Source: an uncultured Clostridium sp. (GTDB taxonomy: Bacteria > Bacillota > Clostridia > TANB77 > CAG-508). From it: DNA of 64,000 nucleotides. The notes below the pieces were generated by a model. It was not told the origin of the DNA. It made no database searches and saw only the letters and a list, made by a program, of their open reading frames with translations. Position 1 is the first letter of the stretch; each line of letters begins with the position of its first letter. The translations under genes and the position numbers were made by a program. Positions 44,892 to 46,446 of this stretch are shown here, in pieces. The stretch spans positions 8,210-72,209 of the forward strand of contig CAMPBS010000001.1 in assembly GCA_946639585.1 (NCBI GenBank). Reading direction: 5' to 3'.

Positions 44892-46446
44892 ATGCAAAAA
44901 GTAAAAACACAAAACAAGCGGAATTACGCTTATTGCTTTAGTAATCACAATTATTGTTTTACTTATATTAGCGGGTATAACAATAAATGCACTAACAGGA
45001 AGTGACTCTGCACCAGCAAAAGCTAATGAAGCAGAACAAAAAAATGATATTGGTTCAGCAAAAGACCAAATTAGCTTAACTGCAGTAAACGCTAAAACAG
45101 AAGCTTATGATACAGCATATGTTGGAAATGGAGTATCAGCAGAAAATGCTTCTACAACAGTAGGTCAAGCTGTAATAGATGCAGTATTACCATATAATGG
45201 AAAAACTATTGGAAAAGCTTCAATAGAAGTAATGCAAGCAGAAACAAATAGCATAAAAGGAGATGCTTCAATTACTATAACAACAAGAGATTTTGAAGTA
45301 GAAGGAACAATAACTTTGCAAGATGGTATTTTAACTTGGGGAGATATTGAAGAAAATGTTCCAGGAATCAAAATTATAAATGTACCAAATTTTGTAGCTA
45401 AAGATGCATATTCTACATTAGATGTAAAAAGAAAAGGAGTATCAAACGATGCAGAAATAAGATGGACAAGTGGGGATACAAGTATAGCTACTATAGAGGA
45501 AAATACTGGTAAGGTTAAGGGAATATCTGAAGGTACGGCAACAATAACAGCAAGTGTAACTGGAACAGATTATACAGCACAATGTACAATAAGAGTTAGA
45601 GAAATAGTAATGCCACAAGTAGGGGATTTTGTAACTTATGATGCAGGTAGTTGGACAACAGATGCAAATAATAATATCTTAATACATTATACAGATGGAA
45701 CAACAGAAGCAGTTGCAGATTCAGCAACAAAACCAAGTTCAGACCATAAATTCGGTGGATTTACAACGACAAGTGGAAAAAATGGAAATGCAACACCATA
45801 TAATGATTCATATAATTATGTTAAAGAAGGAACAAATGCAGTAACAGGTTGGAGAATATTTGATATAGCAGATAATGGAACAATAACTTTAATTTCAGCA
45901 GGATGTCCTGAAGACTACTATCATGCATATTCTACAAATAATGGATATAAAAGTGAATATATTTTATCAGGTAATCATCCAGCGAATATAGAGGTTACAG
46001 GATTAAAAGTTAGAGACTGGACAGCTGATTATGTAAGTGCAGCAAATCAAACAAAAGGAATAACTGCTAGTGTTCTTACAAAAACAAAATTAGATGCTTG
46101 GTATACTAAATATACAAATACTGCAAGTGCTAATACATATACTCAAGCAACATTTAGAAAAGTATATAAGAATGATGCAAATGAAGTAAATGGTGGTAAA
46201 TACGAATCTTTAATAGACAATTATTCATATTATTGGCTCGCTTCTGCTCATTCCGGCTATCCGAGCTACTTGTACTATGTGAACCCTAACGGCAGGTATG
46301 TGCGCAGCAACTACGGCGATGCGTATGGGGTGCGCGTCCTAGTTTCTCTACCATCTAGCATCAGCTTAACAGAAACACCTTCAGGAACAAAAACTATAAC
46401 AAGTAGAGGTAATGATTATACATATAATGTTTGGGGAATAAACTAA
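44892..46446 (+). CDS. large pilin-fused adhesin: class III signal and pilin N-helix, a Big_2 Ig-like domain, and a C-terminal lectin-like domain with a GC-rich variable-region-like patch. It requires a +1 shift at CGG-A after codon 9.
   Basis: ATG 44892 (AAGGAGG upstream) encodes MQKVKTQNK then CGG. Skipping C44919 gives G ITLIALVITIIVLLILAGITINALTGSDSAPAKANEAEQKNDIGSAKDQ..., open all the way into track ORF 45232..46446. This N-terminus is paralogous to PilA (35296) with many synonymous differences. A Big_2-like segment reads IRWTSGDTSIATIEENTGKVKGISEGTATITASV. Confidence 0.8.
44919..44922 (+). other. candidate +1 recoding site CGG-A (pilin-adhesin), encoding the G(-1) of the prepilin cleavage site
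   Basis: AAC AAG CGG AAT TAC... in the 0 frame ends at TGA about 45003. The +1 frame is closed upstream by TAA 44902-04 and has no start codon of its own before 45232. Confidence 0.7.
46231..46366 (+). other. GC-rich, NNC-codon-rich patch resembling a DGR variable region (C-type-lectin-fold C-terminus)
   Basis: Nucleotides 46234-46340 are about 57% G+C by hand count, in a gene that is otherwise about 30%. 16 of 34 codons end NNC (ctc tcc ggc agc tac tac aac aac ggc cgc agc aac tac ggc cgc gtc). It encodes YWLASAHSGYPSYLYYVNPNGRYVRSNYGDAYGVRVLV. Confidence 0.5.

Follow-up and report, generated by a model that had tools for sequence, protein, structure and literature searches.

A probable variable region of a diversity-generating retroelement, standing without its cassette, in a pilin-like adhesin gene of an uncultured Clostridium sp.

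Among described diversity-generating retroelements (DGRs), the nearest to the system considered here are those of Architecture D (Wu et al. 2018, PMC5758913), which have a MutS-like (MSL) accessory gene as well as avd, and of which the Legionella DGR is a named example. Besides MutS-like accessory genes, the same paper reports template and reverse transcriptase (RT) on opposite strands, insertions and deletions in the variable region (VR) opposite AAC, and 29 targets lying >100 kb from their DGR; the TvpA paralogues of Treponema denticola are likewise remote targets. Surveys centred on the RT say themselves that remote targets are missed (PMC8144416). Pili have entered this literature through the type V pilus tip adhesins of Bacteroides (bioRxiv 10.1101/2024.11.15.621889), in a preprint that makes no mention of type IV pili or Firmicutes, and through a survey in which the G-type pilin domain is a rare DGR target domain (PMC11661182); type IV pili are not discussed in the DGR literature searched. 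The present analysis concerns a stretch of 64,000 nucleotides (the window) from an uncultured Clostridium sp. (assembly GCA_946639585.1, contig CAMPBS010000001.1), in which a gene for a modular pilin-like adhesin carries a short G+C-rich island close to its 3' end. To judge from its sequence, the island at 46235–46342 is almost certainly the VR of a DGR target. The account strongly favoured overall is that of a DGR VR in a pilin-like adhesin, here without its cassette and probably orphaned or frozen.

The VR itself is of a known kind, and the cassettes of related genomes fit a described architecture class. These relatives resemble Architecture D in the order of target, MSL, Avd, template and RT, in a template rich in AAC and AAT, in adenine-specific mismatches, in a VR at the 3' end of the target, in changes of VR length opposite AAC runs, and in having RT and template on different strands. 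They differ in that the RT, called as short as 236–314 aa in these Clostridia, is convergent with the template; the window differs further in holding the VR alone, with no part of the cassette. A VR gene with no template or RT next to it recalls remote targets of the TvpA type, and one type of locus in the family (P0064) is such a target, and diversified. Published remote targets, however, have a cognate template in the same genome with A-to-N mismatches only, whereas for the window VR no cognate template was found, its sequence is invariant, and its gene is frameshifted. With the Bacteroides type V pilus DGRs the locus shares a gut commensal setting and rewriting at the ligand-binding end of a pilus adhesin; it differs in being clostridial, and in an N-terminus that is type IV pilin-like and stands beside a cluster for PilB/PilT/PilC and prepilin peptidase. 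Modular pilins of the Streptococcus sanguinis PilB type (PMC8179133) likewise have additional globular modules after the pilin helix, presumed to be adhesive at the distal end, but the target has Ala at +5 after Gly in place of the canonical Glu, and its N_methyl score is below the cut-off. Less familiar, at the level of the family, are pilin-like modular adhesin targets beside type IV pilus genes in gut Clostridia.

The island differs sharply in composition from the rest of the window. Positions 46234–46340 have 57.0% G+C, compared with 29.1% for the whole window, and this is the highest 107-nt value anywhere in the 64 kb. The other stretches of at least 50% G+C are the tRNA-Leu gene (56784–56867), which is also the sole Rfam match of the window (nothing was found in or near the VR), and an intergenic element near 63703–63830. 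Third codon positions show the same contrast. Within the island (46234–46338, 35 codons) they are C in 16 codons, G in 9, T in 10 and A in none, while the remaining 479 codons of the gene have C in 22, G in 22, T in 185 and A in 250; GC3 is accordingly 71% inside and 9% outside, and NNC codons are strongly enriched (Fisher p = 4e-11). Arginine is encoded by CGC (twice) and AGG (once) in the island, by AGA at all nine positions in the rest of the gene, and by AGA at 61 of 70 positions in six neighbouring genes. The original prediction, made by eye, had described the G+C-rich patch, the excess of NNC (then counted as 16 of 34 codons, here 16 of 35), the switch of arginine codons and the encoded peptide (YWLASAHSGYPSYLYYVNPNGRYVRSNYGDAYGVRVLV), and recomputation and retranslation agree with it on all four. 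The composition of the island is neither due to chance nor an effect of its amino acid content.

Read codon by codon, the VR has a randomised core of NNC and NNT codons interspersed with fixed ones (CCG, TTG, TAC, GTG, CCT, AGG and GTG) that answer to non-adenine codons of a template, and it ends 34 codons before the stop codon, near the 3' end of the reading frame as had been proposed. The template form inferred from the variable positions, GTG AAY CCT AAY AAY AGG AAY GTG, has a single match among 241 million metagenome records scanned, on the human-gut contig L136. There the 3' end of a target is followed by a 151-aa ORF, a 119-aa ORF, a template (TR136) and an opposite-strand ORF with the motifs LSIGAMTSQ and YQDD. 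The 5' part of TR136 is GCC AAC AAC AGC AAC AAC GTG TAC AAT GTG AAC CCT AAC AAC AGG AAT GTG, continuing 3' as AAC AAC AAC AAC AAC AAT GCG TTC GGC GTC CGC GTC CTAG. It is the nearest template found and comes from another genome, the cognate template of the window VR not having been found. Even against this heterologous template the window VR has changed 17 of 34 adenines and 10 of 69 non-adenines (p = 2.5e-4), which places 17 of the 27 mismatches on template adenines. In the 51-nt core from TAC (46273) to GCG (46323) all 11 of 11 differences fall on adenines (seven to G, three to T and one to C), and the codons TAT, TAT and GAT of the window sit exactly opposite AAT in TR136. The variable codons are in register with AAC and AAT of TR136, and the earlier suggestion that the NNC codons derive from AAC stands. 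The VR has 55% G+C and 17% A, the template 50% and 33%.

The non-adenine differences from TR136 lie partly in the invariant flanks, at wobble positions of W-L-A-S-A and of the Phe/Tyr-to-Val codons (TTC..GTC in TR136), and partly in the 5' third of the VR, where the sub-lineage of the window is longer by two codons and keeps a Pro and a Leu fixed, a layout common to its closest homologues P0004–P0007 and P0011. Because of the extra codons and non-adenine differences in this 5' third, the cognate template must, on the alignment, be another variant related to templates of the TR136 type. The homing-initiation element (IMH) of a DGR is found where the VR ends on its 3' side. At this point the window reads GTCCTAG TTTCTCTACCATCT, identical to cassette-linked VRs, and GTCCTAG TTTCTCTA(C/T)CATCT is common to the VRs of five lineages, down to the synonymous sites. 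After the same point all templates read (C/G)TAG CTTCTA(T/A)A.., i.e. ..TAG CTTCTATACACTGTGG, where the VRs have TTTCTCTACCATCT. The window carries the VR version, and not the template version, of this IMH-type boundary, which has a putative role in homing.

Variation in the family is almost confined to the same place. The protein collection contains 2633 homologues, whose C-termini have common flanks (ESLIDNYSYYWLASA and AFGVRVLVSLPSGI...) around a stretch of ∼22 variable residues. N, Y, S, D, G and C are frequent in this stretch, and V, P, R and V hold fixed places in it. Within 90%-identity clusters the changes stay inside these ∼22 columns, any one of which may show as many as 8 different residues, and the remainder of the ∼490-residue protein hardly varies; 56 variants were counted in the P0064 cluster and 30 in that of P0021. 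Four relatives with genomes of 26–28% G+C have an island of 48–69% G+C in the corresponding place, and L001, a contig identical to the window, repeats the 55% G+C island of the window itself. The 3' flank GTCCTAGTTTCTCTA(C/T)CATCT is the same across relatives at the DNA level, even at synonymous sites. The protein next closest to the target is 68% identical, and no other sequence has this VR. Four homologues (P0007, P0125, P0129 and P0132) have frameshifts inside the VR that truncate their C-termini (..CVRRACPSFSTIWNLNK); the DGR could have made these as insertions or deletions opposite AAC runs, or they could be errors in the consensus of a mixed VR population.

Complete cassettes occur in the relatives. 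The RT fragment of L136 has 640 homologues, with RVT_1 in each of 120 among the matches listed, and the RT has both a Pfam RVT_1 match (E = 2e-17) and the DGR-type motif LSIGAMTSQ plus YQDD. Contigs with RT homologues carry the full cassette in several chromosomal contexts, and in L136, L138, L139–141 and L149/150 the order is target, MutS_I-like gene (∼151 aa, Pfam E = 1e-7), bAvd (∼119 aa), template and convergent RT. Their cognate template/VR pairs show the adenine specificity directly. In the TR149 pair 18 of 18 mismatches are at adenines and 0 of 68 non-adenine positions are changed; the TR138 pair has 26 of 28 at adenines, and the TR139 pair 14 of 18, the others lying mostly beyond the ..TAG boundary. 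The cassette-linked target of L136 (positions 1–60) has a VR that is the same as its template (..NNRNVNNNNNNAFGVRV..), either because this VR was never mutated or because template and VR reads were collapsed in assembly. Some 200 nt between the template and the convergent 3' end of the RT are kept across cassettes (L136 1101–1290; also L138, L139 and L149; ..CTTCTATACACTGTGGTTAT..AGAGATAATATAGAAACAAACTGTGTCCTTTAGTT..) and end in a hairpin, a possible bidirectional terminator; this stretch is probably the spacer RNA that primes cDNA synthesis.

By the mechanism proposed, the RT would copy the RNA of an AAC/AAT-rich template repeat into cDNA while misreading template adenines, and the cDNA would replace the homologous ∼108 nt at the 3' end of the pilin-like adhesin gene, rewriting ∼17 codons for an exposed face of the C-terminal DUF6273-type domain. 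Changes of A to G, C or T in a template that already has 50% G+C would give a patch of 55–57% G+C, full of NNC codons, in a 29% G+C genome. Since randomisation of adenines in an AAC-rich template explains the composition, there is no need to invoke gene conversion or horizontal acquisition of the patch.

No part of such a cassette is present in the window, as had been noted before for the template and the RT. No template-like copy was found on either strand of the 64 kb by blastn-short or by an adenine-tolerant ungapped scan, and the DGR RT motif ([I/V/L]GxxxSQ) was not found there. The RT, Avd and MutS-like proteins of three cassettes gave no tblastn match to the window (best RT value E = 0.05), and the template and spacer of the relatives gave none by blastn. 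The window VR had no blastn match in the phage and plasmid collections. The inferred template pattern GTGAAYCCTAAYAAYAGGAAYGTG had 0 matches in viral contigs and 0 in reference genomes. Both scans of the reference-genome collection say nothing on the genome of the window, because that collection is without this lineage; the block shared by the 3' ends of VR and template found only unrelated Binatia there. An adenine-tolerant IUPAC pattern of the VR (A, M, R and W only) was dropped, as it matched just poly-A/N runs at the ends of viral contigs and fixed-base anchors are needed. Among the viral contigs no loci related to P0022 were found, and no template or RT was found within 10 kb on each side of four further family loci (L005, L130, L133 and L009). 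The original prediction of a remote or orphan DGR target is upheld by the variable family, the cassettes of the relatives, the adenine bias of the VR, and the lack of any cassette part in the 64 kb. The features of the locus are collected in Table 1.

Table 1. Features of the target gene and its surroundings, in window coordinates
Feature	Start	End	Strand	Basis
Type IV pilus-like cluster	35296	42021	+	Pfam families on identical contig L001
Target gene: modular pilin-like adhesin (pilin-type N-terminal helix, Big_2, C-terminal DUF6273-type domain with VR)	44892	46446	+	ORF list, Pfam
Extra C (AAG C GGA ATT), +1 frameshift	44919	44919	+	Sequence read against homologues
Big_2 Ig-like domain	45442	45585	+	Pfam PF02368, E = 4.1e-8
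C-terminal globular domain, 280 aa, hosting the VR; last part DUF6273	45604	46443	+	Pfam PF19789, AF2
Probable DGR variable region, from GGCTCGCT to GTCCTAG	46235	46342	+	Alignment with TR136 and TR149; coincides with G+C island
Randomised VR core, 24 codons, CAT to GAT	46249	46320	+	Codon table; variable codons NNC or NNT
3' boundary element, G+C-rich block GCGTATGGGGTGCGCGTCCTAG then TTTCTCTACCATCTAG	46321	46358	+	Counterpart of IMH, VR version
Intrinsic terminator hairpin (GGGCGAAC..GTTCGCC, then T-run)	46452	46480	+	Sequence reading; directly 3' of stop codon

The longest clean ORF of the target gene spans 45232–46446 (404 aa), because the pilin-like N-terminus is out of frame with the start at 44892. 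The same frame extends upstream to 44905, and this extension encodes KHKTSGITLIALVITIIVLLILAG..., the N-terminus seen in all homologues after M..K.K; in the homologues the start is intact (M..K.KGITLIALVITIIVLLILAG). The sole ATG with a ribosome-binding site is in a different frame from the pilin-like N-terminus (GITLIALVITIIVLLILAG), and deleting the extra C would restore MQKVKTQNKGITLIAL. This C is present in the window and in four other assemblies (L001–L004). As a correction to the idea of a pilin-adhesin, the pilin-like N-terminus is cut off from the only start codon.

The encoded N-terminus resembles that of a type IV pilin in part. In a comparison with solved type IV pilins, a profile of the family matched their N-terminal helix at E = 6e-4 to 8e-4, and there is a class III signal-like motif (KG|ITLIALV), with Ala at the position expected to be Glu5; Pfam N_methyl scores 13.3 bits on the target, below the cut-off of 21.2. 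Genes for a prepilin peptidase and for PilB-, PilT- and PilC-like proteins lie 3–9 kb upstream, in a cluster that also holds two small pilin-like genes (position 1 of the L001 locus, on which the Pfam families were called, is window position 35232). At the head of this cluster, 9 kb upstream of the target, is a 167-aa pilin-like gene (35296–35799), the first ∼45 residues of which (GITLIALVITIIVLLILAGITI.MLTGSDSAPAKANEA.Q) are nearly the same as those of the target in an N-terminal motif scan. We know of no modular pilin that is diversified by a DGR. On the other side of the target and its terminator is a Peptidase_M50 gene (Pfam on L001), and the slot in which relatives have the MutS-like gene, Avd, template and RT is therefore empty here.

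Of the domains named earlier, Big_2 is clear (residues 180–227 of the translation that begins at 44905). The label DUF1566-like has to be given up, since the C-terminal domain scores as Pfam DUF6273 instead, with 24.6 and 25.4 bits against a gathering threshold of 23.5 and with the last 70 of 172 profile positions alone being matched. The AF2 model of the full protein has a pLDDT of 90.6 and a long N-terminal helix, and that of the C-terminal 280 aa a pLDDT of 96 and a pTM of 0.93. By Foldseek against the PDB, the full-length model has Ig-like (Big_2) matches only (intimin, LigA, phage tail tubes), and the C-terminal domain alone has no significant match (best E = 0.3); the C-terminal domain of Legionella Lcl reaches E = 0.88 to the C-terminal model of the target. 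The best structural matches of this domain are phage DUF6273 proteins in the BFVD, and these are marginal (E = 2e-3 to 5e-2).

With no cassette nearby, a single invariant sequence and a +1 frameshift off the start codon, the window copy appears to be no longer rewritten. If the island is a DGR VR, the balance leans towards this copy having been orphaned or frozen, and recently. All 7 contigs that carry the target protein (P0001) encode one and the same sequence, which is alone in its 90% cluster; the hypervariability between strains that had been proposed as a check was not seen here, in contrast to the 30 and 56 variants in clusters of relatives. The target gene shows 0 differences across L001–L004, though L002 and L004 differ elsewhere. 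Other loci of the family offer precedents for loss. In L130 the MutS-like gene is kept (98.7% identical to that of L136), the Avd, template and RT are gone, and one VR occurs on 12 contigs. The VRs of L009 and L144 are decayed, with AT-drifted codons ending in A (AAA, GAA, TCA, GGA), and the closest homologues of the target, P0002–P0008 and P0011, all have decayed VRs. P0009, which also occurs on 7 contigs, was considered as a relative from the same genome; it comes from other samples and is without a cassette. The 5' ends of two cassette-less loci, L009 (P0003) and L151 (P0009), are likewise split into a short overlapping ORF and a main ORF, and together with the window this suggests that stranded targets have been inactivated repeatedly. 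At another site, marked by PNP_UDP_1 and agr-like genes, the target adjoins a tyrosine recombinase gene (L130 7997–13513, L005 7753–11947). In L130 the target and MutS-like gene are followed by a Mob_Pre relaxase gene in place of Avd, template and RT, and L149 has at this site a full cassette and no integrase. The site looks like a hotspot where an integrative element replaced the DGR core.

Several points weigh against a frozen orphan, or against the reading of the island as such. The invariance comes from few near-clonal assemblies (7 differing sites in 4.6 kb for L002 and a single one for L004), some of the P0001 assemblies being from the same biosample or study, and the cassette search covers 64 kb of the genome. 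Codon decay is absent from the VR, all its variable codons ending in C or T in template register; this is as compatible with recent activity as with a recent freeze, and argues against a long one. Targets of the P0064 type occupy a different chromosomal site, have no cassette nearer than 6 kb and show 56 VR variants, whereas those of the P0021 type vary beside a cassette; since the cassette-less ones vary, action in trans on remote copies is plausible in this family. In the 5' third of the VR the two extra codons and two non-adenine differences from TR136 (C20T, G33T) make the adenine test indirect. The C-type-lectin fold that had been expected of the domain was not confirmed by the comparison with solved structures. 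Finally, L003 differs from the window at 71 sites between 43348 and 44206 (∼8%), all in lysS, and beyond 44206 shows no difference over 2.3 kb, in which the whole target gene lies; this switch, 0.7 kb upstream of the gene, may be a recombination breakpoint or a chimeric metagenome assembly.

The rival that has most to recommend it, though still rather unlikely, is that the target is live, a cassette elsewhere in the chromosome, beyond the 64 kb, rewriting its VR in trans, and that the assemblies share one state by chance. The diversified P0064 targets, the VR-type 3' element kept intact with undecayed NNC and NNT codons, the narrow sampling behind the invariance, and the record of trans action and of targets >100 kb from the cassette (PMC5758913) all fit such a target. 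Against it are the one sequence on 7 contigs where active relatives have tens of variants, the decayed VRs of the closest homologues, and the single metagenome match of the inferred template form, which belongs to another sub-lineage. The frameshift at 44919 would, moreover, bar export of the product as a pilin, and diversification would therefore bring no benefit. A more elaborate version, put forward tentatively and with somewhat less expectation, makes the window gene one node of a multi-target network, in which a single remote MutS-like/Avd/RT cassette rewrites several type IV pilus-associated adhesin tips in trans; the frameshift would then have switched one target off, reversibly or not long ago.

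The frozen-orphan account has also to be set against two further explanations. In one of these a VR already diversified in another strain or in a paralogue was brought, by homologous recombination or gene conversion, into a genome that never hosted that DGR. The abrupt change from ∼8% to 0% divergence in L003 is consistent with recent recombination, related targets are carried on integrase-bearing elements, and the DNA-level conservation of the VR flanks across lineages offers homology for exchange. However, no donor is known, the next-closest protein being 68% identical with an unshared VR, and the layout with extra codons and conserved Pro and Leu is also that of P0004–P0007 and P0011, which favours vertical descent of the VR with its gene. 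Import is therefore improbable, and it would change the history of the patch and not its nature as a DGR product. In the other, ordinary selection on a motif rich in Tyr, Asn, Gly and Ser, or chance, produced the island with no retroelement involved; in its favour, the DUF6273-type motif (YWL..., GVRxxV) is conserved in many proteins not known to be DGR targets. Yet amino acids do not force C-ending synonymous codons, a GC3 of 71% against 9% or a change of Arg from AGA to CGC and AGG, an equivalent island stands in the same place in AT-rich relatives (26–29% G+C), and the templates of relatives show adenine-specific mismatches. This explanation has next to no probability and is already refuted.

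The case shows that raw sequence alone is enough for recognising a DGR footprint, by the island of high G+C and many NNC codons that it leaves within an AT-rich gene, although the retroelement may lie tens of kb off or have disappeared. The family comprises thousands of pilin-like adhesins of uncultured human-gut Clostridia, in copies that are cassette-linked, remote or decayed, and so provides a natural series in which the recruitment of DGR targets, their service in trans and their abandonment can be studied. The family also points to adhesins associated with type IV pili as a surface, binding host or glycans, that is diversified in gut Clostridia. Were the multi-target network real, it would be for type IV pili what the Bacteroides DGRs are for type V pili, and its remote targets would be invisible to cassette-centred surveys. 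The practical message is more modest: the fitting annotation of the locus is that of a frameshifted DGR target whose VR is probably frozen.

The other non-tRNA stretch of high G+C in the window, the intergenic element at 63703–63830, has a G+C-rich core of ∼85 nt flanked by a perfect 15-nt inverted repeat (AAAAATATGTTAAAA / TTTTAACATATTTTT). It has no Rfam match and is single-copy in all DNA compared. In its predicted fold (-33 kcal/mol) the two arms of the repeat pair as a long stem. The element could be a MITE-like insertion or a small RNA.

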